Shown here: in pieces, positions 3,795-34,661 of the stretch
Position numbering within the stretch: position 1 is the first letter of the stretch
How the letters are laid out: each line of letters opens with the position of its first letter
DNA from: Promethearchaeota archaeon
GTDB taxonomy: Archaea; Asgardarchaeota; Lokiarchaeia; Sigyniarchaeales; SOKP01
Assembly (NCBI GenBank): GCA_030606485.1
Contig: JAUWGH010000005.1
Coordinates: forward strand, 10,129 to 74,128
Direction: 5' to 3'
DNA length: 64,000 nucleotides
Translations under genes and position numbers: made by a program
Notes under the pieces: model-generated
Seen by the model: only the letters and a program-made list of their open reading frames with translations
Told to the model about the DNA's origin: nothing
Database searches by the model: none

Positions 3795-3979
3795 ATTTCT
3801 ATATATAATTTAAAATTTAAATTATTTAAACTATTTGTTTAACTTTGAAAACAAAAGTAAAATCCAAAGTTATATGAATAATGATTTTCTATTGTATAAT
3901 AAATATAATTTAAAAATTATATTATTGAATTTTATGAAATTTCTATTATTAAATAAAACCAAATAAAAGGTGAATTTTT

Positions 3980-4273
3980 ATCGGTAAACATCAAAATATA
4001 AAAGCAATAAGAAAGATAGAAAAAAGATTAGGTGCAAAAGAAAGATCTCAAGGTGTTGACTTTGTCGTTGGTGGCAATGCTTATGAATTTGCAGAAACTA
4101 AAGAAGATATTAGATCATCAATTGGACAACTAAATAAGAGTAGAGTTCCTTGCTCGAAAAAATTAATCATCCCAAACAATTTGGATAAATATGCTAGAGA
4201 AGTAACTCAAGGAACTGGAATTGGAATTGAAAATATATCAGGTAAAGTATTAAAAAGATCCAGAAGAAAATAG
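3980..4273 (+). CDS. small PD-(D/E)xK nuclease-like protein with non-canonical start (ATC 3980, or ATT 3974)
   Basis: Not in ORF track. AGGTGA at 3968-3973 is followed after 6 nt by in-frame ATC. The frame is open to TAG 4271-4273: (M)GKHQNIKAIRKIEKRLGAKERSQGVDFVVGGNAYEFAETKEDIRSSIGQL... The order E ... VDFVV ... EFAETK gives a D-x(n)-E-x-K arrangement like Hjc-type mini nucleases. Confidence 0.35.
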   Translation: MGKHQNIKAIRKIEKRLGAKERSQGVDFVVGGNAYEFAETKEDIRSSIGQLNKSRVPCSKKLIIPNNLDKYAREVTQGTGIGIENISGKVLKRSRRK

Positions 4274-4516
4274 CAGTTAAATGTATTGTCTCTATTAGGA
4301 TGAGTATAATAAGGTCTTGTACAAACCCAATTTCTTCAAAATAATTGATGAATATAAATTTAATTATATAAATTTTAGGTTAGTCATTTGAAAGAAATAA
4401 AAAAATTTCTTCAATGTAATTAATTAACTCTGCTTTAGATAATTTTTCTAATTCTTTATTCAACTGCCTTAATCTATTATAAACTTCTTATATGATAAGT
4501 ACAATAATAAAAATTT

Positions 4517-5665
4517 TTAAAAAGATTTGGTGAAATCTTCAATTCTCTCCATAGCGATTTTGAGATTTTTCATAGAAGTAGCATAAGAAATCCTTAATTT
4601 ATCATCGGAAAAGCTTCCAAAAATAGAACCTGGAACTATTGCCACTCCTTTTTCTTCAATAATTTTCTTTGAGAAATCATCTGAAGAAATTTTAAAATTT
4701 GAGATTCCAGGCATTATATAAAAAGCACCTTTCGGCTTCACCACATCAAACCCCATTTCACTTAATCTTTTATAGCAAAATAACCTTCGAGTATTATAAT
4801 CTTTTAAGATTTTTTCAAAGAATTGTATATCCATTTTTAAAGCCGCGATAAAACCGAACTGGGCGGCATGGTTTGTACCAGCGACAGTATATTGTTGATA
4901 TTTTTCCATAAGTTCAATAATATGTGTAGGTGCTGCGACGTACCCCAAACGGATTCCTGTCGCTGAAAATAACTTTGACATGGCATTAAGTGTTATTGTT
5001 CTTTCTTGCATTCCATTTAATGATGCAGGACTAATATGAATTGCATTATCATACAGATAATTTTCATAAACCTCATCGCATATTAGATATAAATCGTTTT
5101 CAATAACAATATCAACAATAGTTTCAATCTCTTTTTTTGTTAAAACATAACCGGTAGGGTTATTGGGAGAATTAATAAGAATCGCTTTTGTTTTATCTGT
5201 AATCTTATCCTTTATATCATCAATATTGGGACTGAAATCTTCCTTTCTCTTGGACTCAATCACTTTAATCCCGTAAAATATGCCACAATAGAAATAAGAA
5301 ATGAAATTAGGCGAACTCAAAATTAATTCATCGCCCGGATTAAATAGAGTAGCAAATGAAAAGGTGATTGCTTGAGATCCACCATTAGTCACAATTACAT
5401 TATCAGGTCCAACATCTAAATTATTTACCCTTTTTAGTTTTTTAGCAATTAATTCGATTAACTCAGGTTGCCCTCGAGTGGGAGCATACATTGTGATTCC
5501 ATCCTCTAATGCTTTTATATTTGCCTTGATAATTGGTTCTGGTGTCCTAAAATCAGGTTGCCCTATTCCCAGACTAATGACATCTTTTCTGCCGGCTGCG
5601 ATGTTAAACAATTCCCGTATCTGAGATCTGGGGGCTAAGTTTACTTTTTTGGATAATTCTTTCAT
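4517..5665 (-). CDS. class I/II pyridoxal-phosphate aminotransferase (aspartate aminotransferase-like)
   Basis: 382 aa. NSPNNPTGYVL and the PLP-lysine motif NAMSKLFSATGIRLGY. Confidence 0.85.
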   Translation of the reverse strand: MKELSKKVNLAPRSQIRELFNIAAGRKDVISLGIGQPDFRTPEPIIKANIKALEDGITMYAPTRGQPELIELIAKKLKRVNNLDVGPDNVIVTNGGSQAITFSFATLFNPGDELILSSPNFISYFYCGIFYGIKVIESKRKEDFSPNIDDIKDKITDKTKAILINSPNNPTGYVLTKKEIETIVDIVIENDLYLICDEVYENYLYDNAIHISPASLNGMQERTITLNAMSKLFSATGIRLGYVAAPTHIIELMEKYQQYTVAGTNHAAQFGFIAALKMDIQFFEKILKDYNTRRLFCYKRLSEMGFDVVKPKGAFYIMPGISNFKISSDDFSKKIIEEKGVAIVPGSIFGSFSDDKLRISYATSMKNLKIAMERIEDFTKSF

Positions 5666-5834
5666 TAAACATCAAAATAATTTTAATTTAATAATCGATT
5701 TTTAAAATCATACAAAAATACACAATCTCAATATAATTTCTCGCTATTAGAGATTATTTTTATAATACAAAAAACGTTTTTTTAAATATTAATTTTCTTA
5801 ACATCTTTTGGAGAATTTAAATTCGAATTTAATT

Positions 5835-7163
5835 TCAAAATGAGATTGTCAGATTAGGAAATGCAATATATGGAAAAAGAGAATTTGAAGAAAACTCAGT
5901 TTCTTTTGAAATGAATTGACAATTTTTTATCATTTCTAAGACATTTCCGCTTACATTTCCACCTTTTATTGGATTCGAGAATCTACCATTTTTAATGAAA
6001 TATCCATTTCTTATTTCAGCTCCAAAAGAACCTGAAAATTCATCTGGTTCTAGCCATGAACATTTTTCAATATAATAACCTTCTTTCACATTTGAAATCA
6101 TTTCCTCTAAAGAAATATCACCTGGCAAAATTTGAAGATTTGTGTTTCCGTTAGTAATTGAACCATTCTCTGTCCTTATGCCATTTCCAGTTGATATTGT
6201 GTCCCCTAAAATCGCATATTTTTGATCAAATAAACGTTTTTTAAAAATTCCATTCTCAATTATTTCGTTTTTCTGTTGAGCGTTTCCTTCTCCGTCCCAA
6301 GCATTTGTTAGTAACCCTCCCTCAAGTAACCCGTTGTCAATAATAGTAAAATTGTCGGATGCAACTTTCTCATTTAAATTAAATTTAGAAACTTTTTCGT
6401 GAAAAGCTTTTCCCAATGCCTGAAAACCAACAACGGGATTAATCGCATCTTTTAAAAGGCTTGGTGAAAAAATAACAAGGGCTTGTTTCTTTGATTTAGG
6501 AGGTTTTGCTTTTAAGTTATCCTTGGAAATTCTAGCCCACTTTTCTACTCGTTTATTAAAATTTAGATGTTCTCTCTCTTTAATATATTCACTTTCCCAA
6601 TATTCAGATAATTTTCCTTTTTCTTGTGTCTTCAAGGAAAATTCAAGGTAAAAAAAAGTTCTTAAATTATCTAAATCTATTCCATTGCTATTATTTAAAA
6701 ATCTTTTTTGGATATGTATTCTAAAACGACCAAAAGTAGGTGTTACATCTTTATATTCATTGATTTCTGTTATTAACTCTTCACAAATCTCTTTTTTGGC
6801 TCTAAGTGGATCTTTTATTAATTTCTGATCGACTGTACTAATCTGCGAAATTGATTTTTTTTCAGGAAAGTTATATTTAGAAGTAGAGTTATTTTTTGCC
6901 AATAATAAACATGTATTTATATATTTCTCAATTTCTTTAGGATCTATCGAATTTCCCTTAACTATCCCAATTCCGGTCTCAATATTTCTCTGAGATAATA
7001 TCCTAATTATATATTCTAAATCATTTATTTCTCTTTCAGATTCAATTTGATTTTTTAAAAATTGCGTTTCATAAATTTGTTGAGAAATAAGATATATTTC
7101 ATATTCCTCAACATTTTTCGATTGAATAGCTTTTCTAATTAATTCTACTTTTTCATTATTCAT
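5835..7163 (-). CDS. pmbA: PmbA/TldE-family metalloprotease modulator
   Basis: 442 aa, directly downstream of tldD on the same strand. C-terminal G-rich PmbA_TldD fold pattern (GNGIRTENGS..., GGNVSGNVLEM). Confidence 0.8.
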   Translation of the reverse strand: MNNEKVELIRKAIQSKNVEEYEIYLISQQIYETQFLKNQIESEREINDLEYIIRILSQRNIETGIGIVKGNSIDPKEIEKYINTCLLLAKNNSTSKYNFPEKKSISQISTVDQKLIKDPLRAKKEICEELITEINEYKDVTPTFGRFRIHIQKRFLNNSNGIDLDNLRTFFYLEFSLKTQEKGKLSEYWESEYIKEREHLNFNKRVEKWARISKDNLKAKPPKSKKQALVIFSPSLLKDAINPVVGFQALGKAFHEKVSKFNLNEKVASDNFTIIDNGLLEGGLLTNAWDGEGNAQQKNEIIENGIFKKRLFDQKYAILGDTISTGNGIRTENGSITNGNTNLQILPGDISLEEMISNVKEGYYIEKCSWLEPDEFSGSFGAEIRNGYFIKNGRFSNPIKGGNVSGNVLEMIKNCQFISKETEFSSNSLFPYIAFPNLTISF

Positions 7164-7170
7164 CTCTTTT

Positions 7171-8571
7171 TCACCCCGGACTAATTAAAGCATTTTTAAC
7201 TCTAATAAAACTACCACCAGTTGTTACCGGAATGAAGTCTTCAACACCTTTCCCACAAGTTCCTCCATGTAAATTTAAATTATCATTACTAATTGCATCA
7301 ATATTTTGTAATAATTCCAAAACTGGACCGCTTAAAGTAATGGATTTAAGTAATTTCGTTCGTTCGCCATTTTCAATCAAATAACCTTTTTTTGATGTAC
7401 ATTGCATCCCTCCTCCTAATGGATCTTCCATTCCAAAATAACCTCGAGTTGGCATTACTCCATATTTAATTTCTGATATCATCTCATCAAGATCATAGTC
7501 TCCTGGCTCAAAATAGGTGTTAGTCATTCTAACATAAACAGGATGAGCAAAAGATTCTCTTCTTCCATTTCCTTTAGGAATACCGTTTAACAATGAAGCG
7601 GTGTGTCTATTGTGTAAAAATCTTTTTAAAATTCCCCCCTCAACTAAAATGTTTTTCCCAGCAGGAATTCCCTCATCATCAAAAAAATAAGATCCCAATT
7701 CATTTTTTAAATTTGGGGAATCACATATTACACATATTTCAGAAGCAACCTTTTTATTTAATTTATCTTTTAAATAACTTCTATCCCTTAAAATCTGATC
7801 CGCTTCCAATCCATGTCCAAAACTCTCATGTGCTATTAAACCAGCCATATCTGGATCTAAAATGATGGGAAATTTTCCTGAAGGAGGAGTATCAGCCTTT
7901 AACATTTCCAAAGAATTTTTAGCTATTTGTTCTAACTTATTATCAAGTATTTCTTCGATTATCTCAAAACCCTTTTCGCCCCCAGTAGAAAAATAATCGA
8001 AATCTATTGTTGATCCTTCTTTTACAACAGGTTGAATAAAAAATCTAATTCTAGGCAACACCTGCCGCAATTGACATCCTTCATTATTGAAAAAAATGCG
8101 TGTCATTAAACTTTCTGAGTAAAAAATTATTGGATTAATAATTCTTTCATCATATTTTCTTAAATAATTGAAAAAATCTCTTATTTTTTGAATTTTTTCT
8201 TCTATGGGAATATCAGAGGGATTAATCTTGGGTTTTATTTCTTTATTTATCTTCCATGCTTCAAATTCATTTATTTCTTCTCCTTTATTGATAACTTTTG
8301 GTAACTTTTTTTCAATATTTTTTAATTCTGAGACATCTTGTGTAGCAAATTCCTTCCAAGACCCTATAAATGTTCGAGCAACAATTCCTGATTTTTTTGC
8401 ATTTATTGAAATTGATTCCTCAGTAAGCGATTTTTTAATCCTCACTGATGATACGGAATCAAATAAAATATCAAAATATTGATTCTCACGTTTAAAACTA
8501 TTAGAAATTTCCTCAAAAATTACAAAAATCTCTTCATTTGATTTATTACTCATAATTAAACCAAAAATCAT
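7171..8571 (-). CDS. tldD: TldD-family zinc metalloprotease
   Basis: 466 aa with the HESFGHGLEAD (HExxxH) motif. The start may be the second Met, 6 codons in. Confidence 0.85.
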   Translation of the reverse strand: MIFGLIMSNKSNEEIFVIFEEISNSFKRENQYFDILFDSVSSVRIKKSLTEESISINAKKSGIVARTFIGSWKEFATQDVSELKNIEKKLPKVINKGEEINEFEAWKINKEIKPKINPSDIPIEEKIQKIRDFFNYLRKYDERIINPIIFYSESLMTRIFFNNEGCQLRQVLPRIRFFIQPVVKEGSTIDFDYFSTGGEKGFEIIEEILDNKLEQIAKNSLEMLKADTPPSGKFPIILDPDMAGLIAHESFGHGLEADQILRDRSYLKDKLNKKVASEICVICDSPNLKNELGSYFFDDEGIPAGKNILVEGGILKRFLHNRHTASLLNGIPKGNGRRESFAHPVYVRMTNTYFEPGDYDLDEMISEIKYGVMPTRGYFGMEDPLGGGMQCTSKKGYLIENGERTKLLKSITLSGPVLELLQNIDAISNDNLNLHGGTCGKGVEDFIPVTTGGSFIRVKNALISPG

Positions 8572-8689
8572 AAAATTCTATATTAAAAATATAAATTCAA
8601 ACAAGAACAAAAGTATTATTATCGCTTATTTTGTGTACTTATTTTAAAATAAATTTTAATCTAATAAAAATTTTTTAAAAAAAAAGAAA

Positions 8690-9064
8690 TTAATGAATTT
8701 TAGCGCCACATCCTTGGCAAAATTGGGCGCCTCCTTCAAGTTGTTCTCCACAAAATTGACAATATTTCTGTTTTTCAGGTTCTTGAGATACAACAACTTG
8801 ATTTTGAGATTCTTGATTATATTCCACTTCAGTGGTTTGTAGTTGACTAGATTTAATTTGAGGTATATCACCAGGTGATTGTGACGATACAATAGAACCA
8901 CAGTGAATGCACCTATTCTCGCTTTGTGAGTAATAAATCATAAGGTAAATAATTAATCCGATTCCAGCTGTAAAACATAATAAGATTATTGCTAGTAACA
9001 AATTAATATCTTCTCTTGCAAGGAGCACGTTTTGCTTACATTGATTGCAATATCCATAAGTAAT
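8690..9064 (-). CDS. LITAF-like split zinc ribbon / hydrophobic anchor protein with C-terminal zinc ribbon (paralog 3; ATT start proposed)
   Basis: The track ORF starts at GTG 9028, but the frame is open upstream and reads (ATT)TYGYCNQCKQNVLLAREDINL... This aligns with MPYGYCPNCRQNVLLVREDIDW of the neighbour. GAGG at 9076-9073 lies 8 nt before ATT 9064-9062. C-terminus is YCQFCGEQLEGGAQFCQGCGAKI. Confidence 0.6.
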   Translation of the reverse strand: MTYGYCNQCKQNVLLAREDINLLLAIILLCFTAGIGLIIYLMIYYSQSENRCIHCGSIVSSQSPGDIPQIKSSQLQTTEVEYNQESQNQVVVSQEPEKQKYCQFCGEQLEGGAQFCQGCGAKIH

Positions 9065-9120
9065 TTTTAAAGCCTCTTTTCTTCTATTTTTATTTTTTTG
9101 ATTATTTTTATTCTAAAAGA

Positions 9121-9522
9121 TTATATAATTTTTGCACCACAACCAGAACAGAAACGGGCGTTTTCTTCAATTCTCTCGCCACAATACGGGCAATAGCTTG
9201 CTTTTAATTCTTTCTCAGGAGCGATAAATTGATTTTGTGATACTTCATAAATATTTTGTTGACTAGTTTGAACTTCATAGGGTTGAGAAACTTTCTGATA
9301 AGGAGTTTGAACCTCAATAGGCTGAGAATCTTGCTGTAAACCCGGAACTATAGTATAACAGTGCACACATCTATTTTCTGGCTTAGAGTAATAAATTATG
9401 AGGTATATAATTAGTCCACAACCACAAGTGAAACAAATTAGGAAAAATGCCAACATCCAATCAATATCTTCGCGAACAAGAAGCACGTTTTGGCGACAGT
9501 TTGGGCAATATCCATATGGCAT
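9121..9522 (-). CDS. LITAF-like split zinc ribbon / hydrophobic anchor protein with C-terminal zinc ribbon (paralog 2)
   Basis: 133 aa. Layout: CPNC - 13 aa ending W - 23 hydrophobic aa (MLAFFLICFTCGCGLIIYLIIYY) - 6 aa - CVHC, then a Q/P/E/S-rich repeat linker (QPIEVQT / QPYEVQT), then YCPYCGERIEENARFCSGCGAKI. AGGTGT SD lies 8 nt upstream of the ATG. Confidence 0.7.
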   Translation of the reverse strand: MPYGYCPNCRQNVLLVREDIDWMLAFFLICFTCGCGLIIYLIIYYSKPENRCVHCYTIVPGLQQDSQPIEVQTPYQKVSQPYEVQTSQQNIYEVSQNQFIAPEKELKASYCPYCGERIEENARFCSGCGAKII

Positions 9523-9614
9523 TTTTTTCTACACCTAATGTTTTATTTTTAATAACCTTTATTTTTAAAATATCTACTTAGATATTTAAGGGTTCTATAG
9601 ACCAAATATTAATT

Positions 9615-10133
9615 TCAATCTCCTTCATTTAAATCAGCACCACACGAAGAACAGAGTTCTTGTCCCTCATCTGAAATTTTTGAACCACAAAATGGGCAAA
9701 AAGCAATCCTTCTATAAAAAATAACAGCATTTTTAATCTGTGGAATTTCCTGAACCTGTTTAGGTTCTATTAATTTTTCAGTGGTCTCCATCTCTGACTC
9801 TACAGAACCTGTATGGGTCTCTTCAGTGGGAACTGAATACATTTCTTTCGGTAATTCCAAAGTTTTAGTTAAATCTTGACCTGGAGGTATTATCACTACT
9901 ATATTATTACATTTTTTACACCTATTCTTTTTTCTTCTAAAGTATAGATATATCAGCACGGGTGTTGCTAAACCTAATGTAACAATAAGAACTATCGTCC
10001 ATACTAATATTACACTATCTTTAAATGGTTTTCTTTTAATTTCTACATATTTTTTACAAATCGGACAAAAGTTTAACTGATTTTTCGATATCACTGATTT
10101 TTCAATCTCTAATTCTTCTAATTTTATAATCAT
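9615..10133 (-). CDS. LITAF-like split zinc ribbon / hydrophobic anchor protein with C-terminal zinc ribbon (paralog 1)
   Basis: 172 aa. Layout: FCPICKKYVEIKRKPFKDSVILVW - hydrophobic TIVLIVTLGLATPVLIYLYF - RRKKNR - CKKC, then an acidic/T-rich linker, then FCPFCGSKISDEGQELCSSCGADL. Confidence 0.7.
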   Translation of the reverse strand: MIIKLEELEIEKSVISKNQLNFCPICKKYVEIKRKPFKDSVILVWTIVLIVTLGLATPVLIYLYFRRKKNRCKKCNNIVVIIPPGQDLTKTLELPKEMYSVPTEETHTGSVESEMETTEKLIEPKQVQEIPQIKNAVIFYRRIAFCPFCGSKISDEGQELCSSCGADLNEGD

Positions 10134-10140
10134 AAATATT

Positions 10141-11085
10141 TTATTTAACTTTATTTCCCAATTTTTGATTTAATTTTTCATATTCGTCTGGAAAAAATCT
10201 CCGTAATAATCTAATCCAATCAAATCCAATTAACATTGCTCCAGTTATTAATATGAACCACCCAAAGATCCTAATTACTTCAGCTTTAATATGAAAGATA
10301 TGATATGGAAATATATCAACTGGAAAAAAAATGAAAAAAATTCCCATTGATGATAATATTATACCCAAAAAGTAAGTATTTAGAGGTTTTTCAGTATAGA
10401 ACATATTCTTTTTATCATTTATTGTTTCATTATCATCAATACTTGTATTTTTATCAGAATTGAGGGATAAAAATTTAAAATTTATAACATCTTTCCAATC
10501 TCTTCCCACTAAAAAACTCCCGAAATATAAAAGCAGAGTTAGTAATATTATAAAAACGGTTCCAATAATATGAAATTCAGTTATTAATTTTTCTTTAGAA
10601 ATCCAAGTGAGTCTTAATAAAAATAATCCTATCGCTATTAGTATTAAAATTATACCAGCAAATCCTTCATGCACATGATGTCTCCCCTTTATAATATTAC
10701 TTTCAAATTTATGTTGATATTTTGTAATTAGAAATAGTGAATGAACCGAAAAAAAGGGAGCAATGCAACAAACACAAAGTATTATTATAAATCCCCATTG
10801 AAATAGAGTGAGTTTTGAAAAAATTGAGAAATAAACACAAATAACGAAATTATAGATCCAAGCACCAATACTTATGATATTTGAAACAAAAAATAGATAT
10901 TTATATTTCTTATATTTTAAATTTAAGAAGATAATTAAAAAAATCCACCCTACAATAAAAATGAACATACCCTTATATAATTCATTGCCTTGTGGATGTT
11001 GAAAGTAATTCCAGAAGCCAACGCCAATAAAAATAGCAATTAAAATAAAAACTGATAAAATAATAATAGTATATTTTCTATTCAT
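10141..11085 (-). CDS. polytopic membrane protein, unknown function
   Basis: 314 aa with about 8-9 hydrophobic segments. It ends 7 nt before the first zinc-ribbon paralog on the same strand. Confidence 0.65.
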   Translation of the reverse strand: MNRKYTIIILSVFILIAIFIGVGFWNYFQHPQGNELYKGMFIFIVGWIFLIIFLNLKYKKYKYLFFVSNIISIGAWIYNFVICVYFSIFSKLTLFQWGFIIILCVCCIAPFFSVHSLFLITKYQHKFESNIIKGRHHVHEGFAGIILILIAIGLFLLRLTWISKEKLITEFHIIGTVFIILLTLLLYFGSFLVGRDWKDVINFKFLSLNSDKNTSIDDNETINDKKNMFYTEKPLNTYFLGIILSSMGIFFIFFPVDIFPYHIFHIKAEVIRIFGWFILITGAMLIGFDWIRLLRRFFPDEYEKLNQKLGNKVK

Positions 11086-11131
11086 TGATTAATTAAGTTT
11101 AATTACAATCTTATTTATTTTTTACATAATA

Positions 11132-11743: not shown

Positions 11744-11808
11744 ATAATTAAATAAAATACTTAACTTAAATATATAAATTAAATATCTTTTTATTTATTG
11801 GATTTTAT

Positions 11809-13047: not shown

Positions 13048-13068
13048 AATTAAGTTTATGAATAGACA

Positions 13069-14073: not shown

Positions 14074-14109
14074 AAACAATACCTTATATATTCATTTTTA
14101 AATAATTTT

Positions 14110-15387: not shown

Positions 15388-15396
15388 TGCAAGATT

Positions 15397-15888: not shown

Positions 15889-16049
15889 ATTAATAGAATT
15901 TATTTTTAATTAAATTTATCAGGTATTTTAGGCAAACAAATTATATCTTTTATTTTTCGAAAATTCTTATCGAATGTGTAGATTCGATGTATTCTTTTTT
16001 AAATCGCTGAAATGACAGTATTATTAAAAAAGGGAAATTTAGTTAATAT

Positions 16050-22924: not shown

Positions 22925-23018
22925 TTTTGTTTCACAAATTTAATAAACTTAAAAATTAATGATATGCTAGAATATTTGATAGTAGTTATTTATTTTTGTC
23001 AATTGCCTCGGTGAAGTT

Positions 23019-24029
23019 ATAATCAAAATCACTATAAAAACCCCGTGTAGGGTACACTTCTCTTTAATTGATGAGAATGGGTATACTGGCAGAATTGATG
23101 GTGGAATTGGTCTTATGTTAGAATCCCCTAATATTGTGATAGAGGTTTCAGATAATTCTGATGGGTTAAAAATTGAAATTGATGAACCTCATGATGGATT
23201 TTTAACAACCATTAAAGAAAAAACTGAGGCGATAACAAATGCTCTTAATGTTAAAAATAAGAATTACCATTTCATAATTAAGGAATATTATCCAGAACAT
23301 TTAGGAATTGGATCAAAAACTCAATTAAGCTTAGCAATCGGTTTAGCAATAGCTAAATTAGAAGGGGCAAATTTACCCATAGAAAAGATTACCAAAATAG
23401 TTGGGAGAGGAGGTACATCCGGAATTGGGTGGAGGGGTTTTGAACAAGGTGGTTTTATCTTAGATGCGGGGCACGATTTCGGTAATGGAAAAGAGAAAGA
23501 AACTTACTTACCTTCTTCAGCCTCTTCATCAGCAAATCCAGCTTTAACTCTCATTAGATACCCTATTCCTGAGAATTGGAGGTTTGTAGTAATTCTTCCT
23601 AAAGTAAAACAAGGAGCTCATAACCAAGAAGAAGTAAATATTTTCCAAGAATTTGCGCCCATTAATCGAGAAGAAGTTAATGAAGTTTCCCATCAAATTA
23701 TCATGAAAATTTTACCGGGATTAATAAAAAACGATTTAAATTGCTTTGGACAAGGAATAAAACGGATTCAAAAAATTGGTTTCAAGAAAATCGAAATAGA
23801 ATTACAAGATCTAATCGTTAAAAAACTAATGAAATTTTTAGAAGCCGAAGGAGTAAAAGCTTATGGAATGTCCTCTTTTGGACCATGCATAGTTGCAATT
23901 ACTGAAAATGATGAGTCTGCAAACATTTTAAAACCTAAATGTGAAGAATTTCTTAAAGACTTCGGAGGCACTGTGATAATTGCAAAACCTAATAATACTG
24001 GAGCAGAAATAAAAATTGAAGAAGAATAA
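23019..24029 (+). CDS. mptG: beta-ribofuranosylaminobenzene 5'-phosphate (beta-RFAP) synthase, GHMP-kinase fold; ATA/ATC start proposed
   Basis: The track ORF starts at ATG 23115, but the frame is open from 22986 and reads IIKITIKTPCRVHFSLIDENGYTGRIDGGIGLMLESP. That is the conserved family N-terminus (TPsRlHf.liD...GR.dGGiG). GGTGA lies at 23010-23014. GHMP motif is HLGIGSKTQLSLAIG. Confidence 0.75.
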   Translation: MIKITIKTPCRVHFSLIDENGYTGRIDGGIGLMLESPNIVIEVSDNSDGLKIEIDEPHDGFLTTIKEKTEAITNALNVKNKNYHFIIKEYYPEHLGIGSKTQLSLAIGLAIAKLEGANLPIEKITKIVGRGGTSGIGWRGFEQGGFILDAGHDFGNGKEKETYLPSSASSSANPALTLIRYPIPENWRFVVILPKVKQGAHNQEEVNIFQEFAPINREEVNEVSHQIIMKILPGLIKNDLNCFGQGIKRIQKIGFKKIEIELQDLIVKKLMKFLEAEGVKAYGMSSFGPCIVAITENDESANILKPKCEEFLKDFGGTVIIAKPNNTGAEIKIEEE

Positions 24030-24420: not shown

Positions 24421-24425
24421 TTTCT

Positions 24426-25667: not shown

Positions 25668-25779
25668 TACTACTCTAATTTATAATTATTTCCTCTCTAA
25701 TTAAATATGTTGCTTTTATAATTCTTAAAAGATAATAATTTCAATTTTAAAATTGTAAAATTAGTATTATGGAATTTTT

Positions 25780-26469: not shown

Positions 26470-26523
26470 AGTTCAATTTATTTAAAAATGAAATATATAA
26501 AAAAGTTGTTTATTTAAAATTAT

Positions 26524-27849
26524 TTATTTTTTAATCAATGATTCGAGTCTTTTTGTAAATATTTTTTCTGTTGCATCCATTTCAGGTACAACATTTTTAA
26601 GCACGCCAATCCAAAAGAAGGGAATAAGAATCCAAAAGAAAATTGATATTAACATTCCATAAACAAAACCAAATGTATCAGCAAAAATCGAACCGATCAA
26701 GGGGCCTATAGCTCTTCCAATAATATCAAAGAAATTAGAGGTTGCAAGCACTGTCCCACGATGTTCAGGAAGGTTTAAATCTACGACCGTTGCATACCAA
26801 TTACCATTTACAGCGCCATTTATAAATATTCCAATCATGAACAATATTAACCAAATTAGAATTCCGGGCATTAAATCCGGAGCTCTAAATGGTATAATTA
26901 AAGCAATGAAGATAAATGGAATAGGAACTATATTTCCCAATAATGCAAGTTTTACACGTGCTTTTTTGCTGCCTTTTTTGAATTGTTTATCTCCAATAAA
27001 ACCAAATACTATAGTCCCAATTAGTGTGGCAAGTAGAATGAGTATTAAATAAATCAAAGTTACATCAGAAGAAATCCCATGATAGTCTTCCATATAAGCA
27101 AAGAGCAAAAATAATATAATACCAGTGGGAATTGTATCAACGAAATTAATAATTAACCAAATATTGGCTTTCTTTTTAAAGATTACTTTCAGGTCAGAAA
27201 AATTTATCCTATATGTATATTCCAATGCATCTTTTTCAAGCATATATGAATAATCTCTGCCAGCTCGAGATGGTTCTCTGAAAAAAATAAAGAGTAGAGC
27301 ACTAATAAACCCGGCAATGCCTATAATTGAATAAGAAATACGCCAATCAATATTACCTAGAAATGTTGCTAAACCCGTTCCGACGACCATTCCTATTAAC
27401 GATGATATTGAAAAGAAAGAGAAACCCTTAGATCGATCCTCTTTAGAGACAATATCACCAATCAATGAGAAGATACACGGAATCAGAGCGCCATATCCAA
27501 TTCCTGTCATGATAGTTAAGAAGAGAAACAAAAAATATCCATTCAAATCTGGCGGAATGAAGATAGTAATAAATGAAAATATTGAAAAAATTATCGTTCC
27601 AATGAAAACAATCCATTTTCTTATTATTTTATCTGCTAAAAAGCCAAATATTAACATTGCTATTCCTGTTAAGATAGTAAATGAAAATGTGAGTATTCCT
27701 AAGGGAGTAGTATTTCCTCCAAATCCAAAATAGTTTGAAATAATGAGGAGATTTGGAGAAATCATATTTGAAATGGATGAAATTAACGTAACGATCGTTA
27801 TAAACAAAATTATTGATAAAATGGGGATATTTTTTGAATTAGCATTCAT
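26524..27849 (-). CDS. MFS transporter
   Basis: 441 aa, about 12 TM segments, central cytoplasmic loop. Confidence 0.8.
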   Translation of the reverse strand: MNANSKNIPILSIILFITIVTLISSISNMISPNLLIISNYFGFGGNTTPLGILTFSFTILTGIAMLIFGFLADKIIRKWIVFIGTIIFSIFSFITIFIPPDLNGYFLFLFLTIMTGIGYGALIPCIFSLIGDIVSKEDRSKGFSFFSISSLIGMVVGTGLATFLGNIDWRISYSIIGIAGFISALLFIFFREPSRAGRDYSYMLEKDALEYTYRINFSDLKVIFKKKANIWLIINFVDTIPTGIILFLLFAYMEDYHGISSDVTLIYLILILLATLIGTIVFGFIGDKQFKKGSKKARVKLALLGNIVPIPFIFIALIIPFRAPDLMPGILIWLILFMIGIFINGAVNGNWYATVVDLNLPEHRGTVLATSNFFDIIGRAIGPLIGSIFADTFGFVYGMLISIFFWILIPFFWIGVLKNVVPEMDATEKIFTKRLESLIKK

Positions 27850-27927
27850 ACTATTAATTTAATTAGGATTGTATAAAAAGATTCAATTTGATTAAAAACA
27901 AGTTCTAATTTCCAAATTTAAACTCTT

Positions 27928-28731
27928 TTAAAAAGGTCCTTTTATGAAACCTCCATCTACTTGAATAACCGTTCCGGTTATATAACTAGCCTTTTCGGAC
28001 GCTAAAAATATGACTAAATTGGCAAGCTCTTCAGGTTTTCCCAATCGACCTAAGGGAATTTGGTTTGTCCATGATTTTTTAACTTCTATTTCCGATTTTC
28101 CTGTTTCTTTAGCAGTTTTTTTAATTAATACTTTCATTCTATCGGTTAAATTTGGTCCAGGACATACGATATTGACTAAAATATTATCTTTTGCATATTC
28201 GCTAGCGAGAGTTTTTGCATAACCAACAATCCCAAGGCGTGTTGTATTTGATAAAACCAAATTTTTTAAAGGTTGCTTTACTGAAACTGAAGTTATTGCT
28301 ATAATCCTACCTGATTTTTGCTTCTGCATTATTGGCAATATCATTCGAGTAATCCAAATAAAAGAAAGTAAATTCAAATCAATAGAATTTAACCACTCTT
28401 TTTTAGTAATTTTATTTGTTGGACCCGATGGTGGACCTCCAGCGTTATGCACTAAAATATCAATTCTCCCAAATTCTTCTATGACTTTATCAACAAGATT
28501 CTTTATATCGCCTTCTTTCAATAAATCTGCAATTACCAAAATAACTTTATTTCCTTTCATTATGGATTTAATTTGTTCAATTTCTTTTTTTGCTTTTTCT
28601 AAATTCTCCATTGATCTACTACAAATCACAACATTTACTCCTTCTTCATAAAGACCTTTAGCACAAGCTAACCCTAACCCCTTACTTGATGCTAAAACTA
28701 AAGCAACCTTTCGTTCCAATCCTAAATTCAT
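27928..28731 (-). CDS. short-chain dehydrogenase/reductase (FabG-like)
   Basis: 267 aa. N-terminal Rossmann LASSKGLGLACA, NAGGPP, and C-terminal ITGTVIQVDGG. Confidence 0.85.
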   Translation of the reverse strand: MNLGLERKVALVLASSKGLGLACAKGLYEEGVNVVICSRSMENLEKAKKEIEQIKSIMKGNKVILVIADLLKEGDIKNLVDKVIEEFGRIDILVHNAGGPPSGPTNKITKKEWLNSIDLNLLSFIWITRMILPIMQKQKSGRIIAITSVSVKQPLKNLVLSNTTRLGIVGYAKTLASEYAKDNILVNIVCPGPNLTDRMKVLIKKTAKETGKSEIEVKKSWTNQIPLGRLGKPEELANLVIFLASEKASYITGTVIQVDGGFIKGPF

Positions 28732-28840
28732 AAATAATCTCTCATTTTCTATTACTAATTATGTCAGTTTTATTACTTAAATTATTTTTTTATTAGAATT
28801 AAATTATTTCCCTATTTTTTTTATGAAATAACATATTTTT

Positions 28841-28926
28841 AATATATCATTTTCCAATATATCAATCTCCGATATATTTAAATATCCTTTCTTCTATGAA
28901 TTATATATATCTAAACAGATATATAT
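28841..28926. promoter_or_regulatory. candidate operator region between divergent SDR and padR genes
   Basis: About 2.5 tandem copies of a 15-nt unit (aatatatcattttcc / aatatatcaatctcc / gatatattt...) at 28841-28887. A perfect 10-nt inverted repeat atatatatct-aaac-agatatatat lies at 28903-28926. Confidence 0.3.
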
Positions 28927-28985
28927 AAAAAAATATATATTTTGAATAGATTAATAATTTGTTTAAATTGGTGAATTAAAAAAAA

Positions 28986-29633
28986 ATGTTTTTTGGCAAG
29001 AGATTCAGCGGATATCATGGCGGTCATTCATCAGGATTGGATATATTAGTATTATCAATGATAAAGAACAATGATGGTATTTCTGGATATGAAATAATTC
29101 AAAAAATAAATAGAAAATTTAAAAATGTATGGAGAGCTTCATCCGGTACAATTTATCCACTCTTAAATCGATTAGCAGAACAACAATTCGTTGATATTGA
29201 GGAAAAAACTGAAAATAATAGATTAAAAAAGATTTATAGGATCACCAAAAGGGGCATTGAAGGATTAAAAAAAGTGTTAGAAAATAATCTCCAACCAAAT
29301 ATAGATACGCTTGGTGATTATATACAAACAGTTTTAAAGGCAATACCAAGTAAAAAACATTTTGAACAAATGTTTGGCTGCTTTCCTTATACATTTCCAG
29401 AATACCCAAAACTTGATAAAAAAATTGACAAATCTGACTATTCTCCACGTAATATAGAACGAATTGAAAGTATCATTCAGGAATTAGAAGAGAAAAAAAT
29501 ATACTTTACAGATAGAATTCACAAGCTTGATAATAGTTTAGAGGATTATAAAAAAATTCTCGAGAAACTCAAGAAAGAAAAAGAAAAACATACAAAAATT
29601 ATTCCAATAATCGATGATGATGAAGAATTCTAG
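28986..29633 (+). CDS. PadR-family transcriptional regulator with long coiled C-terminal extension
   Basis: ISGYEIIQKINRKFKNVWRASSGTIYPLLNRLAEQQFV. GGTGA SD lies 12 nt upstream. Confidence 0.8.
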   Translation: MFFGKRFSGYHGGHSSGLDILVLSMIKNNDGISGYEIIQKINRKFKNVWRASSGTIYPLLNRLAEQQFVDIEEKTENNRLKKIYRITKRGIEGLKKVLENNLQPNIDTLGDYIQTVLKAIPSKKHFEQMFGCFPYTFPEYPKLDKKIDKSDYSPRNIERIESIIQELEEKKIYFTDRIHKLDNSLEDYKKILEKLKKEKEKHTKIIPIIDDDEEF

Positions 29634-29693
29634 AAATTTAATCAAATTAAATGAATTTAATAAATAAGAATAATAAAAAAGAGGAAAAAAAAA

Positions 29694-30194
29694 ATGTGTT
29701 TTGAAGGAAGCTTTAATCCACAATTTCGGCATAGCCATTTTCGATGTTCTCCACATGATATCGCAGCATTAAAGGGAATGATTTTTAAAGGTATGAAACA
29801 CGGTATGAAATTTTTTGAAGGCTGGGTACCTTACGATATACAAGAACATGAGAATGAATATTTAATCACTATTCCATTGCCAGGACTAACTAAAGACGAT
29901 GTTAAAGTTTCAATTGTTGGGAGGAATTTAAATATCACTGCAAAAAGATCAAAATCTGATGAGAAAGAAGGTGTGAGTGATGAAAGTAAAAAATCTTATG
30001 GAGTATATGGAGCACCATTTTTCATGGATTTTTTCTCACGGATGAGTAAAAAGGATATTAATCTTGATATTCCCTTACAAATTGATGCAGATGAAAACAT
30101 GGTTAAATCAAAAATGGCTAATGGGCTCTTAGAAATAAAAATTGGAAAAAAGCTAGCAAAAAATATTGACATAAATACTGAAGGAAACGATTAA
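29694..30194 (+). CDS. Hsp20/alpha-crystallin small heat-shock protein
   Basis: PYDIQEHENEYLITIPLPGLTKDDVKVSIVGRNLNITAKR ... NGLLEIKI. AGAGGA SD lies 9 nt upstream. Confidence 0.8.
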   Translation: MCFEGSFNPQFRHSHFRCSPHDIAALKGMIFKGMKHGMKFFEGWVPYDIQEHENEYLITIPLPGLTKDDVKVSIVGRNLNITAKRSKSDEKEGVSDESKKSYGVYGAPFFMDFFSRMSKKDINLDIPLQIDADENMVKSKMANGLLEIKIGKKLAKNIDINTEGND

Positions 30195-30429
30195 TAGAAT
30201 CTTTAATAAAATTAATGGCGGAGCGCTTAAGAATAAATGATTTATCGCTTCAACGGGAATAGAATTGAAAATTCATAATTCTGAAGCACCCTATTAATAA
30301 TATTTTTTTTAATTATTATACTTTTTTCAAGATATTATATTAAGATTAAAATAAACAGTTGTTTGAATTTAAAATACAATTTCACACAAAAAAAGATACT
30401 AAAAAAATTAAATCAAATAATAAAAATTT

Positions 30430-30666
30430 TTATCTTCTAATTTTTCTTGCTTCTCGTTCAACTTCCCTTAATAAAACGATATCATCTAAACGAACTGGTC
30501 CCTTAACGTTGCGAGTTAAAATTCTGTTTTTATCCGGCCCTTCTAAGATCCTGACCTTGACTTGCATTATCTCCCCTGTCATCCCAGTCTTTCCGACAAC
30601 CTGAATGACCTGAGCCGGATAGGATCGATCTACATACCCTTCTTTACCCTTTTCTCTTTTACTCAA
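30430..30666 (-). CDS. rps28e: ribosomal protein eS28
   Basis: 78 aa with a TTG start. [27 protein letters not shown]...[22 protein letters not shown]. Confidence 0.9.
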
Positions 30667-30686
30667 TAAATCTCAACTTGATGTTT

Positions 30687-31055
30687 CTACTTTAATTTAA
30701 CAACTTGGCTGATAATATCTTTAATTGCTGCTACATTATCTTCTCCAGGTATAATTATAGCAAGAGAGGATGTATCAATTTTTAAACCCACCGCTTTTCC
30801 CAAATCTTTTTTTGTGTTAACATAAATATATGGAATGTTCTTCTCATCACAGAGCAAGGGTAAATGGAAAACAACTTCTGGTGGATCAACATCTTCGGCA
30901 ATGATAACTAATTTAGCAATGCCGCGTTCAATGGATTTAGTAACTTCATTCATTCCCTTTTTAATTTTTGTTTCAGGAGTGCTCGAAATGTTTGAAATTG
31001 TATCAATTACTTTTTTTTTTAATTTATCAGGTATATTAATTTTAACATAACTCAT
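30687..31055 (-). CDS. rpl7ae: ribosomal protein eL8/L7Ae (K-turn binding)
   Basis: 122 aa. [48 protein letters not shown]. Confidence 0.95.
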
Positions 31056-31276
31056 TTTTTTAAAAAACCTCCTTCAAATATTCTATAATATTTTCATTAA
31101 TCATAGGATAATTCCTTAAATAAATCATTTTAATTAAAATTTATTATAATTTCTTATTGGTTTTCACAAATAATTTTTGTCTTATTTTCTTTAAAATAAA
31201 AACAGATTAATAATTTTTATGACTAAGAGATATGTTATGAAGAATATTTGACTTTTATTTAGAAGATGATTTTAAA

Positions 31277-32773
31277 ATGAGAGGTAAAAATATGGATTGG
31301 CTGGAACAACCTAGAATTTATGAAATAAACACTTGGCTTTGGCTTCAAGCTTTATCAAATATTTATAAACACGAAATTACGCTTAATAATATCCCTCCTG
31401 AGGTTTTCGGTCAAGAATTAAAATTTTTCGATGTTATTTGGCTTATGGGTGTCTGGGAACGCAGTCCTCAAAGTAGAGAAATTGCTCTTAACCACACTGG
31501 CTTACAACAGGAATATCATAAAGCTTTAAGTGATTTTAAGACAGAAGATGTTGTAGGCTCGCCCTATTCCATCTTTGACTATCACGTAGATCCTCATCTT
31601 GGTGGTGAAGATGGTTTAAAAAACTTCCGTAAACAATTAACCGAACGAAATATGCATTTATTACTAGATTACGTACCAAACCATGTAGCTGTTGATCACC
31701 CCTGGATTTTAGAAAAACCAGATATATTCATAAAAGGAAATATTAATGATTATAGAGCACATCCAATTGAATTTTTTAGTACTAATGATCATATTTATGC
31801 ACATGGAAAGGATCCTAATTTCTTTCCACCTTGGACGGATACAGTGCAAATAAACGCATTTTCATCGGTTGCCCGAAAGAAAGCAATAAATATTTTACTC
31901 AACATTGCTGAACAATGTGATGGTGTTCGTTGTGATATGGCAATGTTAATGATTAATCATGTTTTTAGTCGTACTTGGGGTGAAAGAGCGGGACCTCGAC
32001 CAGAGAAAGGCTTTTGGCGGGAAGTAATCCCTGAGATTTTGAAAAAATTTCCAGACTTTTTATTTATTGCAGAAGTATATTGGAATATGGAATGGGAATT
32101 ACAGCAACAAGGATTTAATTTTTGCTATGATAAACGGTTGTATGATCGTATGCTGCACGAGAGAGCTGAAACGATTTATATTCATCTCTGTGCAGAATGG
32201 GATTATCAAAGGAAACTTTTACGCTTTATTGAAAATCATGATGAACTTAGAGCAATAACGGTATTTGGTGAAGAACGTTCTCGAGCAGCTGCAATTATAA
32301 GTCTCACTTTACCTGGTGCAAAATTAGTCCATGAAGGACAAATGAAGGGGTATAAAGTAAAAATACCGGTTCAATTAGGAAGGCGTCCAGTTGAGGATAA
32401 TAACCAAGATCTCTTAGAATTTTATCAAAAACTATTAAATGTTGCATCTGCAGAGGAATTAACCAAAGGTAAATGGGCTCTCTGTAAGATTGAGCCTATA
32501 AATACTGAAAATTACACATATACTAATTTAATTTCTTATCAATGGATGTCCAAAGAACAGCATCATCTTATAGTTGTAAATTACAGTCCAAATCCTGCGC
32601 AAGGACATGTTAGAATTGAAGAATTAAATTACGATACTTATGATTGGATTTTTACTGATTTACTAACACAAAAAAGATTTATCTATAAGGGCAAAGATCT
32701 TGATACTTATGGTCTTTACGTCGATCTTTCTGCTTGGGGCGGTCACATATTTTATATAAAGCGAATTGATTAA
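31277..32773 (+). CDS. GH13 alpha-amylase-family glycoside hydrolase
   Basis: Conserved regions DYVPNH, GVRCDMA, FIAEVYW and FIENHDE. The true start may be ATG 31292, with AGAGGT 6 nt upstream. Confidence 0.85.
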   Translation: MRGKNMDWLEQPRIYEINTWLWLQALSNIYKHEITLNNIPPEVFGQELKFFDVIWLMGVWERSPQSREIALNHTGLQQEYHKALSDFKTEDVVGSPYSIFDYHVDPHLGGEDGLKNFRKQLTERNMHLLLDYVPNHVAVDHPWILEKPDIFIKGNINDYRAHPIEFFSTNDHIYAHGKDPNFFPPWTDTVQINAFSSVARKKAINILLNIAEQCDGVRCDMAMLMINHVFSRTWGERAGPRPEKGFWREVIPEILKKFPDFLFIAEVYWNMEWELQQQGFNFCYDKRLYDRMLHERAETIYIHLCAEWDYQRKLLRFIENHDELRAITVFGEERSRAAAIISLTLPGAKLVHEGQMKGYKVKIPVQLGRRPVEDNNQDLLEFYQKLLNVASAEELTKGKWALCKIEPINTENYTYTNLISYQWMSKEQHHLIVVNYSPNPAQGHVRIEELNYDTYDWIFTDLLTQKRFIYKGKDLDTYGLYVDLSAWGGHIFYIKRID

Positions 32774-32825
32774 ATTATTCAATGAATTGTTCCATAAGAA
32801 ATAGATTGATTTAATCTATGTCTTA

Positions 32826-33674
32826 TTATTCTCTAAGGAATGATTGTATACTTGAATTAACTAATTCAGGATCATCGTGCATAACCCAATGAGATGCGTT
32901 CTCAATTCTAACAATTTTAAGATCTTTAATAAAATCTTCTAATCCTTCGAGTACTTTAGGCAATACAAATATATCTTTCATACCGAATATAACTAAAGTT
33001 GGGACATTAATTATTCCAGACCATTCCTCATAGCTACGATTTGCCTTGTAATAATTTACTCCTCCAGTTAATGCGCCTGGTTGGGACCATGCTTCTATAT
33101 ATTTTTCTTTATCAAATTCACTAAATGCTTTTTTATTTTTTGCTGTACCAAAAACAGACAATTGTAAAGCTTGAAAATTATTTTCAAAGAGAAAACTTTC
33201 ACCTTCTTTTAAAAATCTGACGATATATCCACTGGCTTTCTTTTGGTCGTTATCTTTTGTAATTAACTTTCTAAATATTTTTGGATGGGGCGCATTTAAT
33301 ATTATTAATTTTTTTAATATTTCAGGGTATTTCTCGGCTAATGCCCACGATACCATTCCACCCCAATCATGTCCTGCAAGATTAAATTTAGTAAAACCTA
33401 ATTTTTCGCTTAAACCTTTAATATCTTCTATTAAAATATCTAATTTATAATTTTCAATTCCATCCGGTTTATCGGAAAGATTATAACCTCGCATATCAGG
33501 AACAATTAATTGAAACTTATCTTTTAACCCTAAAATTATATTTTTCCAACCATACCAAAAATCTGGAAATCCATGTAGTAATATGAGAGGTTCTCCAGAA
33601 CCAGTAATAATTGTATGAAGGGTAATTCCATTTATTTTAATATATTTTTCTTCGATTTCATTAAATATTTCCAT
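32826..33674 (-). CDS. alpha/beta hydrolase, epoxide-hydrolase/haloalkane-dehalogenase-like
   Basis: 282 aa. LLHGFPDFWYGW and nucleophile elbow LAGHDWGG. Confidence 0.8.
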   Translation of the reverse strand: MEIFNEIEEKYIKINGITLHTIITGSGEPLILLHGFPDFWYGWKNIILGLKDKFQLIVPDMRGYNLSDKPDGIENYKLDILIEDIKGLSEKLGFTKFNLAGHDWGGMVSWALAEKYPEILKKLIILNAPHPKIFRKLITKDNDQKKASGYIVRFLKEGESFLFENNFQALQLSVFGTAKNKKAFSEFDKEKYIEAWSQPGALTGGVNYYKANRSYEEWSGIINVPTLVIFGMKDIFVLPKVLEGLEDFIKDLKIVRIENASHWVMHDDPELVNSSIQSFLRE

Positions 33675-33743
33675 AATATTTATTCACAATATTCATTAAA
33701 ATAAAAACAATTTAAATCTAAATTAATAATTTAATTAATAGAA

Positions 33744-33847
33744 TGGGATGGGAGGGATTCGAACCCCCGACCTCTTGGCCCCCAGCCAAGAATTACGCTG
33801 TAAAGAATAAGTCTTTACAGAATCATACCAAGCTAGACCACCATCCC
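33744..33847 (-). tRNA. tRNA-Pro(GGG) with 30-nt intron at non-canonical position 25/26
   Basis: Minus-strand read: GGGATGG TG GTCT AGCTTGGTA TGAT [tCTGTAAAG ACTTATT CTTTACAG CGTAAT] T CTTGG CTGGGGG CCAAG AGGTC GGGGG TTCGAAT CCCTC CCATCCC A. Anticodon GGG, G37, A73, no encoded CCA. The intron is plus-strand 33792-33821. Confidence 0.75.
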
Positions 33848-33975
33848 ATATTTAATAGAGGTTAATTCGCAAAGTAGGTTCTTTATTTCTATTAGTAAAA
33901 CACAATATAAATTTTTTATAATATTTCAAAAAAAATATTTAAATTTTCCATCAATTTAAAAAATAGAGTATAATA

Positions 33976-34266
33976 ATGAGAAAGAGAACGCCATATCTTA
34001 TTTTTTGGCCCCAGTATTTTGATAAGAATCGAACAATCAATCAAGGTCGTAGATTACCTAAAAATCTTGCAATTGAAAAGGTAACTTTAGATGATATAGA
34101 GAAGGCGGTGAAAGCATTAGGTTATGAATATAAAATTGAAAATACTTCAAGATATCCAAAGACATGGTGGGATAACCCGGGGCGTATTCTCATTGATTCT
34201 AAAGGCAAAAAGAAAAGAAAAATATTATTTGAAATCGCAAAGCAAATCAGGAAAATAAAAAGTTAA
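33976..34266 (+). CDS. srp19: signal recognition particle protein SRP19
   Basis: 96 aa. IFWPQYFDKNRTINQGRRLPK. Confidence 0.85.
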   Translation: MRKRTPYLIFWPQYFDKNRTINQGRRLPKNLAIEKVTLDDIEKAVKALGYEYKIENTSRYPKTWWDNPGRILIDSKGKKKRKILFEIAKQIRKIKS

Positions 34267-34286
34267 GTAATAGGGGAGAAAAAAAA

Positions 34287-34661
34287 ATACACGAGTTTGC
34301 TTTTGCATCACAAATTTATCAAACTGCCTTAAACACAGCTATAAAATATAATGCTATTAAAATTACAGAAGTATTTTTAGAAATTGGAGAATTTACTCTT
34401 ATTGTTCCTGAACTTTTAAAACAATCATTTAAAATGGCGACAACAGGAACTATTGCAGAAGGTGCTAAACTAAACATGCAAGTCACTCCTGGAGAAATTC
34501 AATGTAATAAGTGCGGTAAAATAACGACAATTAGCTTTAAAGAAACAGATGCTTTAACGGGGTTGCTGTTATTTAAATGTAAGTTTTGTGATTCTACAGA
34601 TACCAAAATTATTAAAGGAAAATCCGCAATTGTGAAAAATATAAAAATAGAAACAGACTGA
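34287..34661 (+). CDS. hypA: hydrogenase nickel-insertion protein HypA; ATA start proposed
   Basis: The track ORF starts at ATG 34434, but the frame is open from 34233 and reads (ATA)HEFAFASQIYQTALNTAIKYNAIKITEVFLEIGEFTLIVPELLKQSF..., the conserved HypA N-terminus (MHE...). The C-terminal zinc site is CNKCG ... CKFCDS. GGGGAG at 34273-34278 lies 8 nt before the ATA. Confidence 0.75.
   Translation: MHEFAFASQIYQTALNTAIKYNAIKITEVFLEIGEFTLIVPELLKQSFKMATTGTIAEGAKLNMQVTPGEIQCNKCGKITTISFKETDALTGLLLFKCKFCDSTDTKIIKGKSAIVKNIKIETD

Follow-up and report, generated by a model that had tools for sequence, protein, structure and literature searches.

Can a cell begin the translation of conserved genes at AUA, AUU or AUC? 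The question is raised by a 64,000-nucleotide (nt) stretch of a Promethearchaeota archaeon (GenBank assembly GCA_030606485.1, contig JAUWGH010000005.1, positions 10,129 to 74,128 of the forward strand; hereafter the window). A preliminary description of this DNA had pointed to four loci where ATA, ATT or ATC (collectively ATH) follows a Shine-Dalgarno (SD) motif at the place where a start codon is expected. They are hypA, for the hydrogenase nickel metallochaperone; mptG, for beta-ribofuranosylaminobenzene 5'-phosphate synthase; the second of two tandem genes for zinc-ribbon membrane proteins (paralogue 2, Zn2); and a gene for a conserved protein of 97 amino acids (aa). All four are present in the sequence as described (Table 1). 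Comparison with related genomes indicates that they are functional genes, very probably translated from a near-cognate AUA, AUU or AUC start codon.

ATH codons at the N-termini of four genes

At each of the four loci the ATH codon aligns with the initiator methionine of orthologues or of a paralogue. In-frame stop codons lie 2-18 codons upstream, and no canonical start is found at or upstream of the conserved N-terminus. It had been claimed that the open frames contain no canonical start at all; this holds up to the conserved N-terminus, but the first ATG, GTG or TTG does occur 12, 31, 49 and 67 codons after the ATH (codons 28, 43, 67 and 69 of the open reading frames, ORFs). The spacers between SD and ATH measure 6-8 nt, and the duplex energies, computed with an assumed archaeal 16S tail (GAUCACCUCCU), range from -5.8 to -8.5 kcal/mol versus a window background mean of -2.2 kcal/mol. 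When the SD duplexes of the four genes were compared with those of the 63 canonical genes of the window, p was 0.008. A strong SD precedes 24% of these 63 canonical starts versus 7.5% of random positions. The bare motif GGTGA-N4-8-ATH is not enriched: a tabulation against a shuffled expectation, as had been proposed genome-wide, gave 34 occurrences versus 27.7±5.4 in shuffles, which is not above chance. The evidence must therefore come from homology and comparison. The signal is the match to the methionine of homologues, the absence of an alternative start and the conservation across lineages, not the motif alone. All four ORFs are intact and under purifying selection, with ratios of nonsynonymous to synonymous substitution rates (dN/dS) of 0.14-0.24.

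Table 1. Positions of the four ATH-initiated gene candidates, their SD motifs and the tandem zinc-ribbon paralogue in the window
Feature	Position	Strand	Remarks
SD AGGTGA of the 97-aa gene	3968-3973	+	-8.5 kcal/mol; in-frame TGA 3971-3973 closes the upstream frame
Gene for conserved 97-aa protein, start ATC 3980	3980-4273	+	homologue methionine on the ATC
Zinc-ribbon membrane protein, paralogue 2 (Zn2), start ATT 9064-9062	8690-9064	-	aligned with the methionine of paralogue 1
SD GAGG of paralogue 2	9073-9076	-	8 nt upstream of the ATT; -5.8 kcal/mol
Zinc-ribbon paralogue 1, start ATG 9522-9520 in the window	9121-9522	-	ATG/ATT polymorphism
SD GGTGA of mptG	23010-23014	+	-7.6 kcal/mol; conserved in L018 and L019
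mptG, start ATC 23022	23022-24029	+	aligned with the orthologue methionine
SD GGGGAG of hypA	34273-34278	+	8 nt upstream of the ATA; -7.2 kcal/mol
hypA, 124 aa, start ATA 34287	34287-34661	+	profile position 1 on the ATA

The window has a GC content of 29% and contains no Ns. Exact matches of its proteins assign it to a population of Promethearchaeota (Lokiarchaeota), and names such as 'Promethearchaeota archaeon' are attached to HypA homologues. It is 100% identical to the Logan contig of run SRR14876846 (L015/L016). Contigs L001-L010 are 98.6-99.8% identical to it; they comprise scaffolds of six ENA samples, contigs of three Logan runs and the NCBI metagenome-assembled genome (MAG) GCA_023128565.1. 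The Logan contig L011 from another run is 90% identical in DNA, and the JGI contigs L012-L014 are about 80% identical. For mptG and the 97-aa gene, exact look-ups of the neighbouring proteins gave same-sample contigs only, and independent loci came from GTDB and metagenome scans.

In hypA, the profiles TIGR00100 and NF001976 put their position 1 on the ATA at 34287, the codon proposed in the preliminary description. The full-length TIGR00100 match (88.5 bits versus a cut-off of 88.1; profile positions 1-114 aligned from the ATA) takes in the (M)HE of the N-terminus as well as the zinc site CxxC...CxxC, of which both 'CNKCG' and 'CKFCD' are present. Because the N-terminal Met-His-Glu of HypA forms the nickel site, the N-terminus must be at this ATA. 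The ATA and its SD are identical in 10 of 10 contigs of the species, which come from at least nine samples and three assembly pipelines (ENA, Logan, NCBI MAG), and in L011, where dN/dS relative to the window is 0.15 (dS 0.28). TTG stands at this position in the sister lineage, and more distant relatives have M.

MptG matches the equivalog profile NF040726 over positions 1-327 (349.1 bits versus a cut-off of 328). Eighty orthologues from GTDB species representatives read 'xMKIRITTPCRI', which places the methionine on ATC 23022, 7 nt after GGTGA. Two adjacent codons, 23019 and 23022, had been offered as the start; the ATC at 23022 stands and the ATA at 23019 does not, because the orthologue methionine aligns with the former and MAG 6H3_1 has ACA in place of the latter while keeping the ATC. 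The ATC is kept in L017, L018 and L019; MAGs with this ATC are 2R3_4, 6H3_1 and ABR01, from other projects, and dN/dS between the window and these relatives is 0.14 for ABR01 (dS 0.34) and 0.15 for 6H3_1 (dS 0.084). In L073, an unrelated lineage 58% identical, an ATT lies behind GGTGA at the same position. The remaining orthologues start with ATG (71), TTG (4) or GTG (1). A strong SD was found in one of the 71 ATG-starting genes versus GGTGA in both independent ATH lineages. The other 70 ATG-starting orthologues (within L020-L096) have A/T-rich leaders without any SD; this matches the published rarity of SD in Lokiarchaea and points to initiation that is leaderless or independent of the SD in most genes. 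The gene for MptD (DHNA) lies directly 3' of mptG. From the GTG within the mptG SD runs a mini-ORF of three codons, GTG AAG TTA TAA (23011-23024, +), whose stop overlaps the ATC as TAATC, and this overlap resembles stop-start coupling motifs. A synteny break was also observed at about 25779 relative to L001-L003 (same species, 98.6% identical), where a DUF3795 gene and a gene for a 381-aa protein lie upstream of the DUF447 gene, so that mptG is not a neighbour there.

The ATT of Zn2 is aligned with the ATG of its tandem paralogue ('KK-M-PYGYCPNC' versus 'LK-I-TYGYCNQC'). It is kept in the ENA strain L097 and in the JGI contig L098, a lineage about 71% identical whose Zn2 orthologue has the SD GGAGG; between the window and L098, dN/dS is 0.24 (dS 1.46). 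Paralogue 1 starts with ATG in the window and with ATT in both L097 (99% identical) and L098, and both paralogues of L098 start with ATT. The ATG/ATT difference at paralogue 1 is a genuine polymorphism within one species, and ATT is probably the older state.

For the 97-aa gene, ten homologues with 69-79% identity were found, and the seven full-length ones (P0121-P0127) begin 'MGKHQN' with the M on the ATC. Conserved sequence following the ATH had been claimed for three of the loci; this fourth is thereby also backed. Start codons across 15 loci of the family are ATC in seven (the window and six others), ATA in two (L101 and L105) and ATG in six, and an in-frame TGA lies two codons upstream in all metagenome loci of the family. 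The spacer in the window is 6 nt. Near-identical leaders of the family carry AGTGA with ATG versus GGTGA with ATA. An AlphaFold (AF2) model of all 97 residues reached a predicted local distance difference test score (pLDDT) of 93. This score over the whole ORF, together with the homologues, indicates a real 97-aa protein whose fold depends on the residues encoded ahead of any canonical start. No match was found in Pfam or NCBIfam, no sequence match in the PDB and no significant Foldseek match. The preliminary description had called this ORF nuclease-like. The best fold matches, XisH 2inb (E = 0.18) and YaeQ (E = 0.59), are both non-significant, and resemblance to a PD-(D/E)XK fold is hinted at only weakly. 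In L106-L111 the leader reads ATG AAG TGA TTA ATT ATC, with the in-frame stop inside the SD; P0128 has TGG there and reads 'MKWLIIGKHQ', so that the change from stop to sense restores an ATG start further upstream.

ATH starts and SD strength across Promethearchaeota

Near-cognate initiation had been suggested for this organism. The pattern is not peculiar to it, since ATH starts recur in reverse rubrerythrin, response regulator and DUF447 genes across the phylum. These three families were found as genes flanking mptG in 80 related loci. Start codons were surveyed by clustering all stop-to-stop ORFs from 83 sources (the window and 82 loci). Conserved antisense ORFs and alignment shifts of one column overwhelmed the automatic census, and only families with a clear sense identity were read by hand. 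ATH accounts for 24 of about 416 genes in these hand-read families (about 6%), or about 3% without rubrerythrin. In the window, the start codons of about 67 genes are ATG in 53, TTG in seven, GTG in three and ATH in four (6%). ATH starts are found across the phylum at roughly 3-6% of sampled starts, a rate that is rough because of the reading by hand.

In the reverse rubrerythrin family, GGTG(A) is in 13 of 14 species followed after 6 nt by ATT (11), ATC (1) or ATA (1), with an in-frame stop directly upstream of the ATH in nine of the 13. The Pfam domain RUBY_RBDX begins at residue 8 of the protein. The response regulator starts with ATG in seven of 15 species, with TTG in two, ATA in three, ATC in two and GTA in one. 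DUF447 genes have ATT in two of 76 species (L037 and L041), behind TAA or TGA stops. Non-canonical codons at aligned starts comprise 32 ATH versus this single GTA, and most of the ATH starts need a transversion from ATG. The near-exclusive occurrence of ATH and the transversions required speak for functional selection and against random decay. The GTA belongs to the response regulator of L050 (reverse strand, reverse complement 4292-4661) and lies 6 nt behind GGTGA; the SD here is a 9-nt GAGGTGATC with -15.9 kcal/mol, and a canonical codon follows only 40 codons downstream. This GTA may be a still more deviant start codon, or the gene may be dead.

A clear regularity is the coupling of ATH to the SD. 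The 32 ATH starts have a mean duplex energy of -7.5 kcal/mol, and 91% of them are at or below -6 kcal/mol. For seven GTG/TTG starts the corresponding values are -5.7 kcal/mol and 57%, and for 84 ATG starts of the same families -1.2 kcal/mol and 2%. ATH starts are thus almost always found 4-8 nt behind a strong SD, whereas ATG starts of the same families mostly lack one. The coupling holds within families and over at least eight separate origins, though the counts are phylogenetically non-independent. Families switch repeatedly among ATG, TTG and ATH along with gain or strengthening of the SD, a clear example of compensatory evolution at initiation sites.

Some further observations in the window concern other features. 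TTG is a common start (7/67 genes), and the TTG starts of ribosomal protein S28e (30430-30672, -), a DUF4443-like protein (36307-37059, -) and a 106-aa protein (42720-43064, -) are kept in all strains compared. A fifth ATH candidate, ORF 43090-43320 (+), with ATT behind GGTGAT, was dropped as a C-terminal remnant of a DUF2961/GH172-like gene. It ends '...HGHASQRSDDYSSTAYWYQKEPH...', has a weak PF11175 match and is probably a pseudogene fragment. The tRNA gene beside hypA (33744-33847, -) was considered as an unusual initiator and found irrelevant. It scores 42.4 bits with Rfam, is missed by ARAGORN under default settings and is misread as 'tRNA-Stop(tta)' when introns are allowed; by eye it looks like an intron-bearing tRNA-Pro(GGG). 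Some 30 additional nt separate its D arm from its anticodon arm, and the intron that they would form is at a non-canonical position. A tRNA-Arg(CCT) gene of 93 nt (39020-39112, +), presumably intron-bearing, lies inside a gene-free stretch of about 1 kb (38717-39673).

Alternative explanations

Four other explanations of the ATH codons were weighed. The one that survives best, improbable as it is, holds that another form of recoding brings ribosomes into these frames, through termination and reinitiation, an upstream frameshift or a mini-ORF read from the SD-internal GTG. The hypA start lies 20 nt past the stop codon of SRP19, Zn2 begins 56 nt after paralogue 1, and the mini-ORF of mptG with its TAATC overlap would suit such a process. 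However, the mini-ORF arrangement is absent from the other loci. Translational coupling is not a general answer because the genes preceding mptG and the 97-aa gene are transcribed divergently, which leaves both without an upstream ORF on their strand. Reinitiation would in any case still need the ATH codon as a start, which makes it a variant of near-cognate initiation.

It is a shade less probable that the four genes are recent pseudogenes that lost their start codons and are no longer translated. Any third-position mutation of an ATG yields ATH with the old SD intact, a genome of 29% GC favours mutation of G to A or T, and TTG or ATG is found in the nearest relatives of hypA. Yet no copy contains a frameshift or a stop. 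The dN/dS values of 0.14-0.24 were obtained between lineages that both carry ATH, so that the divergence accumulated after the ATH arose. ATT is common to both zinc-ribbon paralogues across lineages about 71% identical and is near-universal in the rubrerythrin family, and mptG is the sole copy seen and stands in an operon with mptD. The SD has been gained or strengthened exactly where ATH occurs, which is unexpected for dead genes.

Initiation at the next downstream ATG, GTG or TTG, giving N-terminally shortened proteins, is less probable again. It is what gene callers of the Prodigal type assume, and the preliminary description had rightly predicted the resulting damage: hypA is called as 75 aa in nine of ten contigs, mptG as 304 aa with 31 residues lost, Zn2 as 112 aa from a GTG past its first CxxC, and the 97-aa gene is uncalled in public assemblies. 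Two NCBI entries of HypA (MCK4280970.1 and MCK4237589.1, 124 aa) begin at the ATA, and the truncated 75-aa form stands in ten other public versions. A collection of 15 billion proteins contains none of the full-length MptG, Zn2 and 97-aa proteins of this species. A downstream start would cost HypA its MHE nickel site and half of the protein, MptG its conserved 'TPCR(I/V)H' N-terminal strand and the zinc ribbon its first CxxC, and would reduce the 97-aa protein to its last 29 residues. Moreover, the internal ATG chosen for hypA is ATA in L011, i.e. it is not conserved, the stretches upstream of the downstream canonical codons are conserved as protein, and the SD stands at the ATH codons and not at the downstream ones.

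An assembly or consensus error that miscalled true ATG codons, the systematic alternative raised in the preliminary description, deserves practically no credence: the hypA ATA does follow a run of eight A's, and the window and the Logan contigs L015/L016 come from one sample, but this ATA is the same in the ten contigs of different samples and assemblers and in L011, the mptG ATC occurs in three MAGs of other projects and the Zn2 ATT in L097 and L098, three different substitutions are involved (G to A, G to C and G to T), 38 further start codons show no ATG/ATH disagreement across up to ten assemblies except at the polymorphic paralogue 1, and the same ATH starts appear in JGI and GenBank metagenome contigs at many sites.

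Genuine near-cognate initiation, which had been proposed alongside assembly error, is favoured by the conserved ATH codons, the intact ORFs and their low dN/dS, the recurrence in other genes and the coupling to strong SD. Several points weigh against it. The support is comparative. As mentioned above, the signature alone also fits recent start-codon loss. The 16S tail behind the duplex energies was an assumed one, and the census families are neighbours of mptG, a non-random sample whose counts are not phylogenetically independent. Discrimination by Sulfolobus aIF1 against AUU in vitro is cited in PMC4705826. The archaeal starts listed in reviews are AUG, GUG and UUG only, and SD is described there as rare in Lokiarchaea (PMC7531240; PMC12993045). 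In ribosome profiling of Haloferax, about 30% of the putative alternative sites were near-cognate, yet they were set aside (PMC7261190).

Probable near-cognate initiation in Asgard archaea

Initiation by the ribosome at the ATH codons, methionine as the first residue and a lower or regulated output are what we infer for these genes. In the mechanism that we propose, a strong SD duplex (GGTGA, AGGTG or GGAG(G)) ending 4-8 nt upstream would anchor the small ribosomal subunit and place the AUH codon in the P site. Met-tRNAi would then pair with AUH through the first two positions, with the third-position mismatch tolerated, and the extra energy of the SD would offset the weaker codon-anticodon pairing and the discrimination by aIF1.

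Bacteria have known AUH starts, for example in infC and pcnB of E. coli, where they make up about 0.1% of starts or less, and NCBI translation table 11 includes ATT, ATC and ATA among its start codons. As in these bacterial genes, a near-cognate AUH on an SD-led mRNA would be the only start of the main ORF in the genes studied here, and the initiator tRNA presumably reads it; such a start would be weak and dependent on context. They differ in that the machinery is archaeal (aIF1, aIF1A and aIF2; no IF3 or fMet) and that the genes do not encode initiation factors. Autoregulation of the infC type does not fit hypA, mptG, genes for zinc-ribbon membrane proteins and a 97-aa protein, and the window contains neither an aIF1 gene nor aIF2, the initiator tRNA or the 16S 3' end. 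In addition, unlike in E. coli, AUH starts here form a few percent of starts, with a marked all-or-none coupling to strong SD in a phylum in which SD is otherwise rare.

The parallel with eukaryotic near-cognate initiation (CUG, ACG, AUU and others; tuned by eIF1 and eIF5) lies in the homologous factors, since aIF1 corresponds to eIF1 and aIF2 to eIF2. AUU, AUA and AUC are among the usable eukaryotic near-cognates, and among archaea it is the Asgard group that stands closest to eukaryotes. Eukaryotes, however, scan and use Kozak context instead of SD, and their near-cognates mostly open upstream ORFs or N-terminal extensions and are rarely the sole start of a conserved protein. Mitochondria use the same three codons as routine starts in AT-rich genomes; their mRNAs are leaderless, AUA is reassigned to methionine and the modified C34 (f5C) of tRNA-Met widens decoding, features not known from Promethearchaeota. 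Within archaea, GUG and UUG are likewise non-AUG starts on SD-led mRNAs, and in the studied families they also have a stronger SD than AUG. Their mismatch is in the first position and is accepted (PMC7531240), whereas that of AUH is in the third position and AUH is not listed for archaea.

Bacterial and mitochondrial AUH starts were known, as was HypA from ATA in NCBI; systematic, SD-coupled use of AUH in Asgard archaea would be new, and no report of such starts or of their SD coupling in this group was found in the open-access literature. Tentatively, and with more doubt than confidence, one may go further and count AUA, AUU and AUC among the regular start codons of Loki-type Asgard archaea, as a fourth class used by a few percent of genes and strictly with a strong SD. 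They would then be a distinct and tunable mode of initiation, whose output may depend on the level of aIF1, much as that of the AUU-initiated infC does on IF3, and a prokaryotic counterpart of the near-cognate initiation controlled by eIF1.

The practical consequence concerns annotation. Prodigal-type callers accept only ATG, GTG and TTG and so shorten or miss a few percent of the genes of Promethearchaeota, an error that is inherited by Asgard gene inventories, metabolic reconstructions and counts of eukaryotic signature proteins. For the biology of these archaea, the constant pairing of a conserved AUH class with a strong SD suggests that the energies of the SD and of codon-anticodon pairing add up to determine how stringent start selection is. 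This offers a testable system in the archaeal lineage nearest to eukaryotes, whose eIF1 and eIF2 homologues govern near-cognate initiation.

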